From a virus (Duplodnaviria; Caudoviricetes), in the IMG/VR virus record IMGVR_UViG_3300025575_000011, positions 1 through 64,000 of that record: a stretch of DNA of 64,000 nt, one strand, 5' to 3'. Shown one piece after another: positions 903-41,061 of the stretch. Made by a program: the position numbers and the translations under genes. Each line of letters begins with the position of its first letter. The first letter of the stretch is position 1. The notes under the pieces were generated by a model. It saw only the letters and a list, made by a program, of their open reading frames with translations, ran no database searches and was not told the DNA's origin.

Positions 903-2279
903 ATGTTAAAAGAAAGTTCTGCCCAACTCATTCAATCTCTTAATGAATTGATTAAGAAATATGCGGGGAATGACAAGATAAGAAATATAATAGTCGATGA
1001 GTTTACTGCAAGGAATATGAGAGCAGGAGTTGCTGTCAATATTCTTAATGAAAGGTTATTATTATCTACATTAAACATTGATGACAAAAAAGATTTAATA
1101 TTGTTATTTGTTTTTACAAAAAGTTTGTTTGTTGCCCTGACTCATAAAGAAACAGATGAACAAGAACCATTGGGAGAAATTAATGAAGGGATTAAGATTG
1201 ATCCTAAATATTATTTTATGTCATCTGAAATTGAAGACTATACTAATTACAAACAAGAGAAAAAAGTTGGTAAGAGTGAACAGTATGTTTTTCATAATAT
1301 GATTGAAATTGGTGATAAGCATTGGATTGGGAAAATATCTTCTCAACAACTAGCATCAATTGATATGGAGAATGAGTGGATTTATAATTATGAAACTCAA
1401 AGAGATCCAGTCATAAATGTCTATGGAACTAAGAGCATTAGACTAGACAAAGCGAAGGCATTAGTTATAAAGAATAGATTGCTTGCAGGCTTGCAGTTCC
1501 CAGATCAAATAAGAGTTAATGTCTTACAGGACGGTAGCGAGAGCATAGATTTTAATTCTAAAAGCGGAGATTTGACCATTGTTTCTGGTACTAAAAATAT
1601 ATTTGATGGTTATCACAGGAAAACAGCAAACTCAATGGCTATAGCTGAAGACGCTAATTTGAATTTTAATTGGGGATTTGCAGTTACAAATTTTAGTGAG
1701 AAAAAAGCTCAAGATTTCATGGTCCAAATTAATAAGCAAAAACCTATGAAAATTGAACACACAAAAAATATGGACACATCTATATTGGGGAATACTACAG
1801 TTGATGCTATTTTGAATGGGGATTCTGAGTTTGCTTTGAATATAAAACAGAGTGATTCTGAACTTGACCACGGGGGTTTGGTTCGAAAGTCTGTGCTTTC
1901 AAATTCCATCGAAGAGGTATTCGGTGAGGACTTAACTAATCGTATTGAAGCGAAAAAAATTGCACAGCATATTGCCGATGTTATGGATTTCATTATTGGC
2001 TTAAAAGTAGAAGAATTTATTAATAATCCAAATGAAACAAAGAAAACAAGTTATATCAACCATAGAAATATGTTTGTAGGATATATGGCACTATCATCTA
2101 AATTTTTTGTCGATAAGAAACCAGTTGAAAATTGGAAGGAAAAAGTTGAAGAAGTATTAGAGAACATTGATTTTAGTAAGACAAATGATTTTTGGAAGGA
2201 TAATGGATTACTAGAAACTAACATGAGTAAGAATAGTCGTAACAACATCTATAAATTATTCTGGAGTAAAACTGTTTAG
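903..2279 (+). CDS. DGQHR/DndB-like (ParB-fold) protein, SPbeta YopQ/SroE-like
   Basis: Motif NIFDGYHRK and upstream YNYETQRD segment; about 460 aa; lies directly upstream of a recombinase-fold gene, as I recall for SPbeta yopQ-yopR. Confidence 0.6.
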   Translation: MLKESSAQLIQSLNELIKKYAGNDKIRNIIVDEFTARNMRAGVAVNILNERLLLSTLNIDDKKDLILLFVFTKSLFVALTHKETDEQEPLGEINEGIKIDPKYYFMSSEIEDYTNYKQEKKVGKSEQYVFHNMIEIGDKHWIGKISSQQLASIDMENEWIYNYETQRDPVINVYGTKSIRLDKAKALVIKNRLLAGLQFPDQIRVNVLQDGSESIDFNSKSGDLTIVSGTKNIFDGYHRKTANSMAIAEDANLNFNWGFAVTNFSEKKAQDFMVQINKQKPMKIEHTKNMDTSILGNTTVDAILNGDSEFALNIKQSDSELDHGGLVRKSVLSNSIEEVFGEDLTNRIEAKKIAQHIADVMDFIIGLKVEEFINNPNETKKTSYINHRNMFVGYMALSSKFFVDKKPVENWKEKVEEVLENIDFSKTNDFWKDNGLLETNMSKNSRNNIYKLFWSKTV

Positions 2280-2304
2280 ATTCAAATGAAAGGGTTGGTG
2301 TCGT

Positions 2305-3321
2305 ATGATGTCCGAAAAGATAACCGACAATTTAGAGGAAGATAATTTATTCCAAGTTGATACTGCATTTAAAGAAGAATTTTTAGGAACACTAAAAAAG
2401 ACAACAAGAAAATTCTATCGTTATGTTTTAAAAAGAGCAGATTTTTATGAAAAACAACTCGGTATTAGTATGTTCGATTTTAATATGGAGCAAAGAGACG
2501 ACATGTTAACAGTTCAATTCAAAAACAAGTCTCAATGGGCTTTCCAAACTGTTAGATCACCATTAAAAAACTATGTGGACTACTGCATGTTTAAAAGTTT
2601 TACAGACAGGAATGAGAATATTTTCGAATTAATTCTTCCTAGTTCCTATGATAAGTATGTAAACCCACAGGCCGTTGAAAACTCATATATTCCTAAAGCT
2701 AGGGTTAGAGAATTAGAAGATTTATTGGTTAATGAACAAGACAAACTCTTCCTTGAATTATTAAGTTGGGGCACAAGAGGTCGTACAGAAAAAGGTAATA
2801 CGCTAGAAGAATTTATAAATTTAAAAGTAGAAGATGTAGATTTCCAAAAGAATACAATTAAACTATCTAAAAACAATATAACTGAAAAAAGAGTTTTATA
2901 TGTAGATGATTTTACTACTGATCTAGTAAAAAGAACTATTGAAAAAGGGTTTTATTTGTTCAATAATGGATTAAAAGGGAAAAAGAATAGTAAAGGAATT
3001 TACGAAAAAACAGATAAAGGATTCCAGATCAATGAAACTGAATATGTTTTCAGAATTCCGGGCAAAAACAAGTATGGACAAATTGATCATCAGTTAATTG
3101 CTAATAGAATACAAAGAATCCAAAAATGGACAAATACAAAGTATTTAAATATTTCTAGCCTCTACTTTTCAAGTATGATAGATAAGGCCAAGGAAATAAA
3201 AGCGAAAAAAGGTAAACTCACTAGACAGGATTATGTTGATATTAATGAGGAATTTTCATACGGAGCAGACGGAGAGATTTATCTGAATAAAATTAAGGAA
3301 ATGATGAGTTTCTATATCTAA
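2305..3321 (+). CDS. tyrosine-recombinase-fold protein, probably catalytically dead repressor (SPbeta YopR/MrpR/SroF-like)
   Basis: Box I-like GTRG...LEEFINLKVEDVD present; the expected HxxR box II position reads LNISSLYFS; 338 aa. Confidence 0.65.
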   Translation: MMSEKITDNLEEDNLFQVDTAFKEEFLGTLKKTTRKFYRYVLKRADFYEKQLGISMFDFNMEQRDDMLTVQFKNKSQWAFQTVRSPLKNYVDYCMFKSFTDRNENIFELILPSSYDKYVNPQAVENSYIPKARVRELEDLLVNEQDKLFLELLSWGTRGRTEKGNTLEEFINLKVEDVDFQKNTIKLSKNNITEKRVLYVDDFTTDLVKRTIEKGFYLFNNGLKGKKNSKGIYEKTDKGFQINETEYVFRIPGKNKYGQIDHQLIANRIQRIQKWTNTKYLNISSLYFSSMIDKAKEIKAKKGKLTRQDYVDINEEFSYGADGEIYLNKIKEMMSFYI

Positions 3322-22157: not shown

Positions 22158-22233
22158 ACCACCAAGAAATTTTGGTTTTATGGGAATATGCCTAAAATAC
22201 ATAAATAAGTAGTTTTTCATAAATCTAAGCAAT

Positions 22234-22269
22234 AAACCCCTGTAACCATTGGTATGACTACGTTTGAGA
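22234..22269. repeat. degenerate copy of the intergenic hairpin element
   Basis: aaacccctgtaaccattggtatgactacgtttgaga aligns without gaps to 39361-39396 (25/36 by eye); lies between junction sites 22164 and 22312. Confidence 0.55.
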
Positions 22270-23131
22270 CACTTCAAGGCATATAAATAATTAGTCCATA
22301 AAACTTTCCCCATAAAAAAGAAGTTTTAAAGGATAAAAAAAATTAGGAGAGTGTAAGATGAATAAAGTTAAGTTTGACAGAAAGTTTTTAAGAGATGATT
22401 TAGAATTGCCATACAGTGCAACAGAGAATAATATTATTGACTCAAGTAGATGGAGTATTCAGCACAAAATTGTCTTTGCATACGAGGATAAGTTTTATCA
22501 AGCATATTACTCAAAAGGTGCTACTGAAATGCAAGATGAAAGTCCTTGGGAATATGAAGAAGAAGTTGAATGTATTGAGGTAGAACTAAAAGAAGTTAAA
22601 GTTATGCAGTGGGTGACCGTATAATATGAAGATTAAAGACATTGTGGGTATAAATACAAAATGTGATTGCGGTTGTGATATCCCATATTTTAAAATTGTG
22701 TTTTTTCATAAGATTGGCATTTGTTATTTTAAAGAATGTACTGGTGACTGGTGGTTAAGGTTTATGTGGAGAGGTAAAAAATTTAAAGGGTGGAGACAAT
22801 ATTCAACGGTCAGTGGTTGGAGAAATTATAACATGTCATATGGATATGAGGAGTATTTTTTCTAGAAAATAAGGTAGATTAAAAGTTCATTTTCATGGGA
22901 TTAATAAGAAAGAAGGAAGATTAAAATGAATATCAGTGATTTAACTGTTGGTGACATTGTGGATGCTTACATAAATGGTGAAGAAACACATAGGGTAATG
23001 ATCATAGAAATTGGTGAAACATTGGTTTTTGGTATTGATTCAGATAATGAAGAGTATTCCATTGAGCCAAGAAGTGAGATTGAACGAGTTATTGCTAACA
23101 TTAATGAACTGTAAATTAGATATAATATTAT

Positions 23132-33017: not shown

Positions 33018-33046
33018 TTGACTTAATATAACCCATATGCTATACT
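33018..33046 (+). promoter_or_regulatory. sigmaA-type promoter
   Basis: TTGACT-17 nt-TATACT. Confidence 0.7.
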
Positions 33047-33136
33047 AATATACATAGGGAGTGGTTAACCGACAAAACAAAATTCTGAACGAAAAGAGGG
33101 TGCATTATCATGTGAATTACATTATTCCAATATCTC

Positions 33137-33172
33137 CCACCTCTGGAACATAGGCGTAGCAAGGGTTTCAAA
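33137..33172. repeat. partial copy of the intergenic hairpin element
   Basis: acctctggaa-12 nt-aagggtttca has the same arms and spacing as 39361-39400; followed by junction site 33186. Confidence 0.55.
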
Positions 33173-33508
33173 AACCCAAAATAGCTTAAAATCTGGCTTT
33201 TATGGGATTGCATAAAAAGGAGAGCATAATGGATGAAAGTGGGACAACAGGAGTTTGGTTAGTTATGATTTCACTTGGAATAATCGGTATAGTTTTTCAA
33301 TTGGTCAACCTTACATAAATAATAAATATAAATGAAAGAAGGAATTATTAATGGGATTTTCTACACATAAACAACGTTTTACAGCTTTGGAGTCTAAGAA
33401 GTTGAATAGTGGATTGACTGAGGATGAACTTGTTGAATTTAATGTACTAGAAGATTCATTAATCATGGATGAAGTAATTAAATATTGCGGTAAATAAATG
33501 GAGGTGAA

Positions 33509-37661: not shown

Positions 37662-37779
37662 ACAATATAATAAGTAAAGACACTATATATAGTTACAAAA
37701 TACATAAATAATACTACATATAGTGTCTAAAACTCAATAGAATAAAACGAAAATTTCAAAGGAATAAAGGAGAGATGAT

Positions 37780-38881: not shown

Positions 38882-39289
38882 ATGAAAACTGAAACAAACG
38901 ATCAAAAGATTATGGAACTGAAAAAACAAATCGAGGTAAAGAAAAACAAAGTAGGAAAATCCCAAAAGTTTAGCCCAATTACTAATTGTTCAATTGAGGT
39001 TGATGGAGAGCGTTCTAATATTCAAGTATTGACAAAAGAAAAGTTAATCTCATTAATGGTAAAACTAAATTCATATTCAATTTCTGCCAAAGACTTAGAA
39101 GTAGAATATATTATCAGTGGTTACAATGTAGTGGATTGGATTCAAGATATTAAGTCAAAACTTGATTTTGTCAGTCGAAAGGAAGAAGAAAATAAACTAA
39201 AATTCATGGAATCCAAGTTACATGAATTGCTTTCTAATGAAAAGAAGGTAGAACTTGAAATTGATGAAATTGCATCGTTTTTAAAGTAA
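38882..39289 (+). CDS. coiled-coil hypothetical protein
   Basis: 135-aa ORF ending next to junction site 39296. Confidence 0.6.
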   Translation: MKTETNDQKIMELKKQIEVKKNKVGKSQKFSPITNCSIEVDGERSNIQVLTKEKLISLMVKLNSYSISAKDLEVEYIISGYNVVDWIQDIKSKLDFVSRKEEENKLKFMESKLHELLSNEKKVELEIDEIASFLK

Positions 39290-39360
39290 ATCCCCATGAA
39301 ATTGATGTTTTAACCTAGTGTAAAATTTAAGAAATTGTAAATATCAGAAAATTAGATGTT

Positions 39361-39400
39361 AAACCTCTGAAAGCGTTGGTGTGTAAGGGTTTCAGAGGTT
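39361..39400. repeat. intergenic hairpin element, copy A
   Basis: aacctctgaaa[gcgttggtgtgtaaggg]tttcagaggtt: 11-bp arms, 17-nt asymmetric core. Confidence 0.8.
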
Positions 39401-39516
39401 AGGTTGTTACATTTGCCAAAAGAGAAGGAATACAGTTATTTAGGGTAAATCATCAATAATACCATGAAATCAATCTTTTATCCTATTGGAATAAATAATA
39501 AAAAGGTGGAATATTA

Positions 39517-40482
39517 TTGTTAGAATTAAATAATATATATAATGAAGATTGTATATATGGAATGAAGAGAATTGATGCCGAATCTATTGATTTAATTATT
39601 ACAGATCCTCCATACTTAATTAATTATCAGAGTGCAATGAGGACTGATAGATTTGATAAGATTGAAGGAGATAAAGGTACTAAATCGGATTATAATTTAA
39701 TTACTAATTCGTTAAATGAACTGCATAGAGTATTAAAGGAAGGTTCGCATATTTATATGTTTTGCAGTTGGCATAATATTGATTTCTTCAAGCAAGAATT
39801 TCAAAAACATTTTGAATTAAAGAATATATTAATATGGAAGAAGAAGGGTGGGTTTATAGGCGATTTAGAAACACAATATGGTGTTGATTATGAGTTTATA
39901 TTATTTGGATTTAAAAAATGGGAATATTATGATGTAGATAAAGATTGTAATTCATACCCCTTAGTAAGAGGCTATTTTAAAAAATTACAAAAGCATATAG
40001 GTTTAAAATTAAAAGAAATAAACACACATTTAGGGCATAGAAAAGCGGAACATTGTTTTTACTGGAAAACAACGCAATGGGATATGCCGACTAAAGAAAC
40101 ATATAATGAATTAATAAGAACCTTCAACATTGATAACTGGAATGAATTCAAAGAATTTAATAGCTTGAAGGTCGAATATGATAAATTAAAATATATTTAT
40201 AATAAAAGAAAACCTTTAAATGGGAAAAGAATATCTGGCATAATTGAAACATCTAAAGTGCCCAATAAGGAATATATTCACCCTACTCAAAAACCAGAAG
40301 AGATAATTAACATACTTATAGAAAAATCAAGCATAGAAAACGACATAATTCTTGATCCCTTTATAGGTTCTGGTACGACTGCAATAGCATCAATGAACAC
40401 TAATCGTCAATACATAGGTTTTGAATTAGATAATACATATTATGATTTAGCACAAAAAAGAATAGAAGAACATATCAATTAA
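39517..40482 (+). CDS. orphan DNA methyltransferase, beta class (N6-A likely), with internal insert
   Basis: ITDPPY, HPTQKP, DPFIGSGTT; about 90-aa insertion (RGYFKKLQ...QWDMPTKETY). Confidence 0.9.
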   Translation: MLELNNIYNEDCIYGMKRIDAESIDLIITDPPYLINYQSAMRTDRFDKIEGDKGTKSDYNLITNSLNELHRVLKEGSHIYMFCSWHNIDFFKQEFQKHFELKNILIWKKKGGFIGDLETQYGVDYEFILFGFKKWEYYDVDKDCNSYPLVRGYFKKLQKHIGLKLKEINTHLGHRKAEHCFYWKTTQWDMPTKETYNELIRTFNIDNWNEFKEFNSLKVEYDKLKYIYNKRKPLNGKRISGIIETSKVPNKEYIHPTQKPEEIINILIEKSSIENDIILDPFIGSGTTAIASMNTNRQYIGFELDNTYYDLAQKRIEEHIN

Positions 40483-40576
40483 GGTAATTACATAAAATAT
40501 ATAAAATATTACCATAAAATCGAATTTTCATCGTCCTCAATAATTAAGAATCTAAAATATTAGAAAATCAGGTATT

Positions 40577-40616
40577 AAACATCTGAAACCCTTACACACC
40601 AACGGTTACAGAGGTT
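40577..40616. repeat. intergenic hairpin element, copy B (core inverted relative to copy A)
   Basis: aacatctgaaa[cccttacacaccaacgg]ttacagaggtt; core is the reverse complement of the copy A core at 16/17. Confidence 0.8.
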
Positions 40617-41061
40617 GGTTTCACCATTTATCCAAAAACACAGTAAAACAGCCATTTTTCCCTAAAATACCCTAATAGGATAAAAAACACATTTCGAAGG
40701 GTTATAAAGGAGAACTAAAATGTTTATACTAACATGCTCTAAGTGTAATAATAAAATAGAAATTGATGAAGATAAATATAGAGTTAAACCCACTGACAAT
40801 TTTAGTATTTTTATTAACTATAGCGATTATGGAGATGCAATATTTATTGAGTGTAATAATTGTTGTCAAGAAACTATAATAAAATAAAGGAGTGGAATAA
40901 ATGGATACTAAAATAAACATATGTGATACTTGCATCCACCATCCCTACGATTGTTCAGCAAAAGAAACAGATGTTAGATATGGTGATGGAATTGGTTTAG
41001 ATAATGTTTATGATTGTGCTGTTTATACTAAAGGAACTGTGGGATTTGCTCAATATTAACA

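Follow-up and report, generated by a model that had tools for sequence, protein, structure and literature searches.

The stretch of DNA analyzed here, 64,000 nt long and called the window below, covers positions 1 to 64,000 of the virus record IMGVR_UViG_3300025575_000011. It is a part of an 84-kb IMG/VR viral record with an estimated completeness of 51%. The phage is AT-rich and of the Clostridium type, with relatives that reach 227-230 kb. The genes around the locus of interest are all located on the + strand in the order nrdD, nrdG, dUTPase, p366, p135, methylase and p55, followed by small open reading frames. The methylase gene codes for an orphan DNA methyltransferase (a match to PF01555 at 2.5e-38) that has no restriction partner nearby. 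The gene is bracketed by two homologous non-coding modules, A and B, each carrying a quasi-palindromic box, and the core of the box is flipped between the two modules.

The modules, of about 167 bp, are composites of a palindromic site (S) of the family CATRAAA-N6-TTTYATS, a spacer and a box, to which a further S site may be added. The coordinates of all the parts are given in Table 1. Each box is a 39-bp quasi-palindrome with arms of 11+5 bp and a 7-nt centre. The 17-nt segment first perceived as a loop is partly self-complementary (CCGTT..AAGGG), and the truly asymmetric centre is limited to 7 nt. Box A matches its own reverse complement at 28 of 39 positions, and the predicted fold pairs the inner arms. 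A box profile scored box A at 22.1 bits on the + strand and at 9.3 on the - strand; the scores of box B were 20.7 on the - strand and 14.9 on the + strand.

An earlier look at the locus, referred to as the sequence-only reading, had described two pairs of sites and 11-bp hairpin arms in both modules. Three of the four sites do fit the S pattern with 0-1 mismatch, but the fourth one, next to p55, is degenerate and gave no match to this pattern at up to 2 mismatches. Similarly, the 11-bp stem is perfect in box A, while 9 of 11 pairs are formed in box B.

Table 1. Positions in the window of the modules, their parts, the neighbouring genes and the related features elsewhere in the window.
Feature	Position	Strand	Description
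YopQ-like/DndB-like gene	903-2279		458 aa (amino acids); precedes the MrpR/YopR-like gene
MrpR/YopR-family protein	2305..3321	+	338 aa, tyrosine-recombinase fold; candidate binder of the repeated sites
Copy C	22163..22270	-	S site 22163-22182 and box 22233-22270; stem decayed; profile E-value 8e-4
Copy D	33139..33204	+	box 33139-33174 (contains TAGCAAGGGTTTCA) and S site 33185-33204; profile E-value 1.6e-5
p366	37780-38880		gene preceding p135
p135	38882..39289	+	phrog_2574, function unknown; conserved gene upstream of module A
Module A	39290..39516	+	non-coding junction p135/methylase
S1 palindrome	39295..39314		CATGAAA-TTGATG-TTTTAAC, family CATRAAA-N6-TTTYATS, 1 mismatch
Box A	39362..39400	+	39-bp quasi-palindrome: AACCTCTGAAA / GCGTTGGTGTGTAAGGG / TTTCAGAGGTT
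Box A, outer arms	39362-39372 and 39390-39400		perfect 11-bp stem
Box A, inner arms	39373-39377 and 39385-39389
Box A, 17-nt core	39373-39389		core as delimited in the sequence-only reading
Box A, asymmetric centre	39378-39384		GGTGTGT
S2 palindrome	39463..39482		CATGAAA-TCAATC-TTTTATC, 0 mismatches; 20 nt upstream of the methylase ribosome-binding site
Methylase ribosome-binding site	39503-39509		AAGGTGG
Methylase	39517..40482	+	orphan beta-class N4/N6 DNA methyltransferase, 321 aa, TTG start, DPPY motif
Module B	40483..40719	+	non-coding junction methylase/p55
S3 palindrome	40513..40532		CATAAAA-TCGAAT-TTTCATC, 0 mismatches
Box B	40578..40616	-	AACATCTGAAA / CCCTTACACACCAACGG / TTACAGAGGTT; architecture as in box A; 9/11 stem pairs
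Box B, core	40589-40605		reverse complement of the box A core (16/17)
Box B, centre	40594-40600		ACACACC
S4-like degenerate site	40674..40695		82% complementary to 39466-39487; just upstream of the p55 ribosome-binding site
p55 ribosome-binding site	40706-40712
p55	40720..40887	+	small Cys-rich protein

The 17-nt cores of boxes A and B are identical at 7 of 17 positions in direct orientation and at 16 of 17 positions when one of them is inverted, which is what the sequence-only reading had asserted. For the whole 39-mers the identity was 27/39 in direct and 36/39 (92%) in inverted orientation, with the longest exact inverted run of 23 nt. The flanks of the boxes, on the other hand, are directly oriented. 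The left flank with its site (39292-39361 vs 40510-40577) has 47 of 68 positions identical, and the score of the direct alignment was 22 compared to 7.6 +/- 2.3 for shuffled sequences (0/2000 reached the score) and to only 12 for the inverted alignment. The right flank (39401-39462 vs 40617-40676) has 41 of 56 positions identical in direct orientation, again with 0/2000 shuffles reaching the score, and the inverted alignment of this flank was not significant (437/2000 shuffles). The earlier statement that homologous non-coding modules bracket the methylase is thus borne out on both sides of the boxes, and the central observation, a flipped core between direct flanks, is confirmed.

Since both flanks align directly and the order of the pieces is colinear, neither an inversion of the whole module B nor a single larger inversion could be accepted. 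An assembly error is unlikely as well, because exact-protein look-ups in ENA, Logan and JGI assemblies, three sources independent of each other, led to five loci that show 100% identity to the window between 36.4 and 43 kb. We also observed that module B has a GC skew of -0.20; of the 20 intergenic regions that we examined in the + strand gene block, 18 have a positive value. The negative skew is seen over the 3' end of the methylase gene and module B (40200-40800), with positive skew in the surrounding + strand genes.

The methylase occupies a hypervariable slot. Every relative has different DNA 3' of the p366-p135 pair, while the pair itself is conserved in 32 related viral loci. The closest homologues of the methylase (65-67% identity) are placed after nrdG or thyX in other phages, where neither box nor S modules are present in their flanks. 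Therefore, the modules belong to the resident phage and not to a travelling methylase cassette, and the possibility that the methylase moved together with its modules was rejected. For p55 we found one homologue only (80%), located in another context with neither the methylase nor the module.

Promoter-terminator cassettes known as PeSL have been proposed as exchange points bracketing acquired genes in T4-like phages (PMC2839356; PMC4122927). The modules described here are similar to PeSL in that short repeated non-coding motifs and a stem-loop border variable, often orphan genes in a plastic region. They differ in the host clade and in sequence, in the lack of an assignable sigma-70-type promoter in modules A and B and in the presence of antisense copies. 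No close relative with or without the methylase was detected, and all the near-identical contigs carry the methylase.

Modules A and B belong to a larger family. In the window, the S palindrome family has 45 matches compared to 18.8 +/- 5.3 expected. The full composite consists of an S palindrome (CATRAAA-N6-TTTYATG), a spacer of ~45 nt and the quasi-palindromic box (..CTGAAA / TTTCAG..); it occurs at least four times in the genome of the window and is also present in the 227-230 kb relatives and in Clostridium phage c-st. A search with the box profile recovered A and B along with copies C and D, as well as five copies in the complete 227-kb relative G003. The box follows the pattern ..TGAAA-N17-TTTCAGRGG. 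An ungapped alignment of 18 instances showed a constant architecture of YTGAAA, an N17 segment ending with TAGCAAGGG, then TTTCA and GRGG; in boxes A and B and in the box of phage G005 the N17 segment ends with TGTGTAAGGG rather than TAGCAAGGG. The 11-mer TAGCAAGGGTT was found 2-8 times per genome compared to 0-1 times for a reversed control pattern.

The coupling of the two parts was assessed by the frequency of S sites (with at most one mismatch) within 120 nt of a box. Such sites accompany 4 of the 5 boxes of G003 and all 4 intergenic boxes of the 84-kb record (G000), compared to 0.5-2.2% of random positions; in c-st an S site is coupled to 2 of 3 boxes. Bipartite and not described before, the S + box composite is a junction element shared within a clade of Clostridium-type phages and phage-plasmids of 130-230 kb, among them c-st, the phage that converts to botulinum toxin production.

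The phage G005 (loci L068/L072), from the same JGI sample as the window phage and otherwise unrelated to it, has an identical 17-nt core within a stem that differs from that of box A by three compensated pair changes. An identical core inside a changed stem indicates that the core is under sequence constraint. A scan for exact matches to a 15-mer of the core produced 50 viral matches, all of them chance matches with the exception of L068/L072. A scan with a 20-mer of the core gave the same phage again and one match in the rpoC coding sequence, with nothing else found. In large collections the matches to the 15-mer TAGCAAGGGTTTCAG were mostly due to chance, a 15-mer being too short there.

The 43-nt box of G003 matched non-coding DNA in 81 records of Streptococcus (mostly S. 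thermophilus) phages, as well as in SPbeta-like and other Bacillus phages and in c-st. The consensus of these wider matches, AAACCCTTATGTA[T/G]CAAGGGTTT, has an 8-7-8 structure. In the phages of Streptococcus and Bacillus the box occurs alone, without the composite. We observed that the motif is unannotated in all 81 Streptococcus phage records, and a full-text literature search with the box sequence found no paper. In Streptococcus phage P7574 (L414, 1000-1260) a non-coding region that resembles an origin has GGTTAC/GTAACC iterons and, among them, an AT-rich tract with a box on either side.

Several features were noted at individual copies. The five boxes of G003 (at 79157, 91013, 139076, 142378 and 225042) are all on one strand, and the direction of genes switches at ~108 kb; this 5/5 bias, in a small sample, may reflect a polar DNA signal. 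The locus L135 (G004:13231-16241) has more than 1.5 kb without convincing open reading frames and with dense short repeats; its box copy is flanked by direct repeats TAGCAGG(A/T)AATCGGC, and it could be an origin or a terminal region. In the window, a near-consensus sigma-A-type promoter (TTGACT-17-TATACT) is situated at ~33019-33047, and the box of copy D lies about 110 nt downstream of it. Transcripts from this promoter would have a leader of ~175 nt, in which the box and an S site are located, and would lead into a gene for a small membrane protein.

If the hairpins acted in RNA, they would stabilise the 3' ends of transcripts, terminate transcription or be processed by RNases between genes, with a loop that flips neutrally. 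We consider this unlikely, even though some of the hairpins are very stable: hairpin A as RNA has -19.9 kcal/mol (z -7.2), the hairpins of G005 have -18.7 and -23.7 kcal/mol, and that of L133 has -19.0. The compensated stem changes between box A and G005 also speak for a role of RNA, as does the position right after the p135 stop codon of a hairpin with TAGCAAGGGTT in its loop in five relatives (a plain GC hairpin in the others). On the other hand, box B as a sense RNA is no better than shuffled sequence (-8.6 kcal/mol, z -0.8 for the + strand), and many family members are unable to form the hairpin or pair in a different register. A strict hairpin covariance model found only A, B and G005, so this form of the hairpin is rare. 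In a stem-only element the stem should be the more conserved part, but here it is the primary sequence of the "loop". The terminator scan detected neither a U-tract nor a terminator in the region. With the Rfam 15 covariance models there was no relevant match up to an E-value of 10 at 38-42 kb and up to 1 in the whole window, and seven related loci yielded one irrelevant sub-threshold match only; an assignment of the modules to a known RNA family was therefore dropped. No transfer RNA or transfer-messenger RNA was found. Moreover, the copies have either orientation relative to genes. The box is sense to the flanking genes in A, D, the copies after p135 and four other loci, and antisense in C, G005, L138 and two more copies of G003. 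In G003, three copies are antisense inside a long minus-strand gene block and two are sense or in a divergent region. The occurrence in either orientation relative to transcription suggests a DNA-level site, and comparison of the copies leads us to favour a nearly symmetric site in double-stranded DNA, in which a flip of the centre would cost little. An explanation by mobility, with a 39-bp box similar to repetitive extragenic palindromes or miniature inverted-repeat transposable elements inserted oppositely into two homologous junction sequences, appears to us very improbable. Such an element would be compatible with the identical 17-nt core in the unrelated phage of the same sample, with the spread of the motif across Streptococcus, Bacillus and Clostridium phages and with intergenic copies in both orientations. 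However, there is no target-site duplication, the flank-to-arm junctions are common to A and B (..TTAAAC followed by ..CTGAAA), no empty site was found, and no HUH/Y1 transposase was noticed, without a search aimed at one. The tight coupling of the box to an S site at a fixed distance is a better fit to a composite regulatory unit.

The sequence-only reading had further proposed a micro-inversion switch or an oriented recombination site that would make methylation phase-variable. The flipped core in direct flanks and the arm-spacer-arm geometry stand; an active switch is not supported, as the observations in assemblies give no indication of switching. If A and B were oriented sites of a tyrosine recombinase, an inversion between them would flip the 1.2-kb methylase segment, and the sites at other junctions would shuffle accessory cassettes. 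The elements favouring this explanation, which we rate as quite improbable, include the box with its 7-nt asymmetric centre and the 7-6-7 S sites, the 23-nt exact inverted identity between A and B and the location at variable-gene junctions. Besides, the record has a gene of the tyrosine-recombinase fold, a bona fide integrase domain is present in the relative G003, and the right arm alone is conserved across the family, which recalls the shufflon sfx sites. Still, the sole candidate in the record is an MrpR/YopR-like protein with a sub-threshold integrase score, and MrpR has lost catalysis (PMC10516654). The five same-strand copies over 146 kb in G003 would lead to lethal deletions if active. 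The serine invertase/resolvase domain PF00239 was absent from the 84-kb record, two complete relatives and two other records, and the only PF00589 match in the record was the sub-threshold one in the MrpR-like protein; as the record is 51% complete, a recombinase may be encoded elsewhere. The gene order does not vary among the 8 contigs with p135 or p55, which come from at least 3 samples, the core orientations are identical in every assembled copy, and both orientations within populations were not seen in the consensus assemblies (these contigs and the five fetched loci). Phase-variable methylation is thus not supported, in view of the single arrangement in all assemblies, the failure to find a serine invertase and the diverging stem of box B.

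Formally, A and B are inverted repeats of 39 nt with 92% identity located ~1.2 kb apart, which bound the methylase segment; the promoter scan assigned no promoter there. The inverted repeats around a methylase and the arm-spacer-arm sites are shared with the invertible switches (fim, hin/gin, shufflon sfx/Rci and phase-variable methylases), from which the locus differs by the lack of an identified active recombinase and by one orientation in all assemblies. In phase-variable methylases it is the specificity domains or promoters that are inverted, and none is known to invert a hairpin loop. A core of 17 nt enclosed by 11-bp arms is also much shorter than the invertible segments known to be driven by recombinases. 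With its two mismatches the stem of box B is diverging and is not maintained as a switch arm. No direct exact match between the two modules exceeds 8 nt, therefore excision by homologous recombination would be inefficient; only an inversion via the 23-nt inverted identity is conceivable for homologous recombination between A and B.

Intramolecular template switching is known to turn the spacer of a short inverted repeat into its reverse complement, and its signature is a spacer of preserved length between colinear flanks. Loop or spacer inversion by this route has been documented, also for bacterial loops of 7-8 nt (PMC8794818; PMC8604942). In boxes A and B the arms directly flank the segment, 17 nt in one copy correspond to a 17-nt reverse complement in the other, and the flanks are colinear, so the likeness extends to the short inverted repeat, the replaced spacer, the equal length and the flanks. 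The differences are that we see two paralogous copies in one genome rather than orthologues on a tree, hence the change cannot be polarised, that the 17-nt segment includes partly paired inner arms, and that the element is probably a DNA site rather than a ribosomal RNA or microRNA hairpin.

The explanation that we find best, giving it a little better than an even chance, is that A and B are regulatory cassettes at gene junctions, paralogous to each other, between which a methylase was acquired, and that a micro-inversion caused by template switching became fixed in one of the two copies. One S + box unit would have been duplicated at the acquisition of the methylase, or recruited via recombination between junction cassettes. 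Later, the asymmetric centre of one box would have been inverted in a single step. The likely route is a template switch within the molecule, or a repair event mediated by the hairpin, that involved the 11-16 bp arms of this same box. A simple recombination between the arms of A and B should, by reasoning, flip both cores or neither, unlike the pattern observed. The flip may have been tolerated because the element would act as a double-stranded, near-symmetric protein-binding site that reads almost alike both ways; a candidate binder of such a site is the MrpR/YopR-like inactive-recombinase repressor of the phage. The flip would then be a fixed evolutionary scar and not a programmed switch.

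This candidate, the protein encoded at 2305-3321, has a match of 39.7 bits (cut-off 27) to PF22822, the core-binding domain at the N-terminus of MrpR, and its match to Phage_integrase (16.8 bits) was below the cut-off of 27.1. A profile made of three sequences (from the window, G003 and c-st) matched the MrpR/YopR structures PDB 8A0A/8BJ6 over the full length with an E-value of 3e-24, compared to only ~0.2-0.4 for true Xer recombinases; the 338-aa protein by itself had no match in a direct search of PDB. The record has no other integrase-like gene. The MrpR-like gene is preceded in the window, G003 and c-st by a gene of ~460 aa, which is the order of yopQ and yopR in SPbeta. We observed that the region 903-3321 has the form of an SPbeta-type master-repressor module in a Clostridium-type phage-plasmid, with the same gene pair in G003 and c-st. 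The MrpR-like domain is present in G000, G003, G004 and c-st, that is, in all four large phages with the composite, and in 1 of 14 control genomes.

MrpR is the master repressor of SPbeta; it has a tyrosine-recombinase fold and binds the repeated intergenic element SPBRE (PMC10516654). The protein retains 3 of 7 catalytic residues, and its recombinase function is lost (PMC10516654). The likeness to our system consists of the full-length MrpR-family protein beside a YopQ-like gene and of a short repeated element in many intergenic regions of accessory or early genes. The element described here is bipartite (S + box), and its sequence is unrelated to the candidate SPBRE derived by us, save for TATGTAT. 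A direct identification of the box with SPBRE was rejected, as SPbeta-like genomes carry one copy of the box only and a different repeated motif.

We consider it possible, though rather doubtful, that S and box constitute the operator set of an MrpR/YopR-type master repressor, an inactive tyrosine recombinase, in large Clostridium phage-plasmids (such as c-st and the clade of the window phage) and have retained the arm-spacer-arm design of recombination sites from which they would descend. The flip in B would in this case be a relic or a variant of site polarity, and the A/B pair could loop out and silence the methylase or set lysogeny versus lytic expression; the wider box would be an undescribed DNA signal shared among Firmicutes phages.

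Several facts weigh against the picture of a fixed micro-inversion in cassettes bound by this repressor. The comparison with the loci of relatives, suggested in the sequence-only reading, returned no orthologous module with homologous flanks among the 32 related loci and the collections scanned, and without such an outgroup the flip is unpolarised in direction and timing. Template switching should leave a perfect stem; the two mismatches in box B would require that mutations occurred afterwards or that the switch took place further inside. The negative GC skew of module B and its last site, which is best matched in inverted orientation, are hints of a history more complex than one micro-inversion. 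The single arrangement rests on consensus assemblies, which cannot exclude minority orientations. As for the repressor, the candidate SPBRE (..AAAAAATATGTATATAA, derived here from the SPbetaL4 genome) shares only TATGTAT with the box centre, and phage P7574 of S. thermophilus has the box but lacks an MrpR-like domain. That the MrpR-like protein binds to the box and S elements is something we purely infer.

The flipped core is a clean natural case of a palindrome-centre inversion between two paralogous copies in a phage genome. It also calls for caution, since an inverted micro-segment beside a methylase need not be a phase switch. Beyond the flip itself, the more useful result is the context of the modules, i.e., the S + box family and its possible tie to MrpR-type repressors. 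If the element is the operator of the MrpR-like repressor, it would define the lysogeny regulon of these phages and would explain how acquired genes, methylases for example, plug into the regulon.

Other candidate functions of the modules were considered and set aside. Promoter-like sites in the region were as frequent as in shuffled sequence, with none on the + strand inside A or B, and we rejected a sigma-70 promoter; a general promoter role is ruled out by the antisense copies. In relatives, a GTTACA-17-TAAAAT arrangement follows the box; it is absent from A and B. A rolling-circle nick site (CTTGATA, Streptococcus/Bacillus loop) did not fit the variable positions of the family; the same was true for the CcpA cre site, the -35 element of extracytoplasmic-function sigma factors, parS and a mimic of the tRNA-Tyr anticodon arm.

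A few more observations concern the neighbourhood of methylases. For one gene near the methylase the sole named homologue came from a Clostridium metagenome-assembled genome. Three contigs (L410-L412) carry an identical methylase, 67% to that of the window, directly after nrdDG; the genes that follow the shared methylase differ and include extra methylases, which makes it another hypervariable methylase slot beside genes of nucleotide metabolism. In the window, a pair of NrdR-box-like palindromes, ACACTATATATAGT.. and ..ACTACATATAGTGT, is located at ~37680-37695 and ~37713-37728, about 33 bp apart, upstream of p366 and not of the phage nrdDG genes. A similar pair is found ahead of a methylase homologue in the locus L413 (2369-2500).

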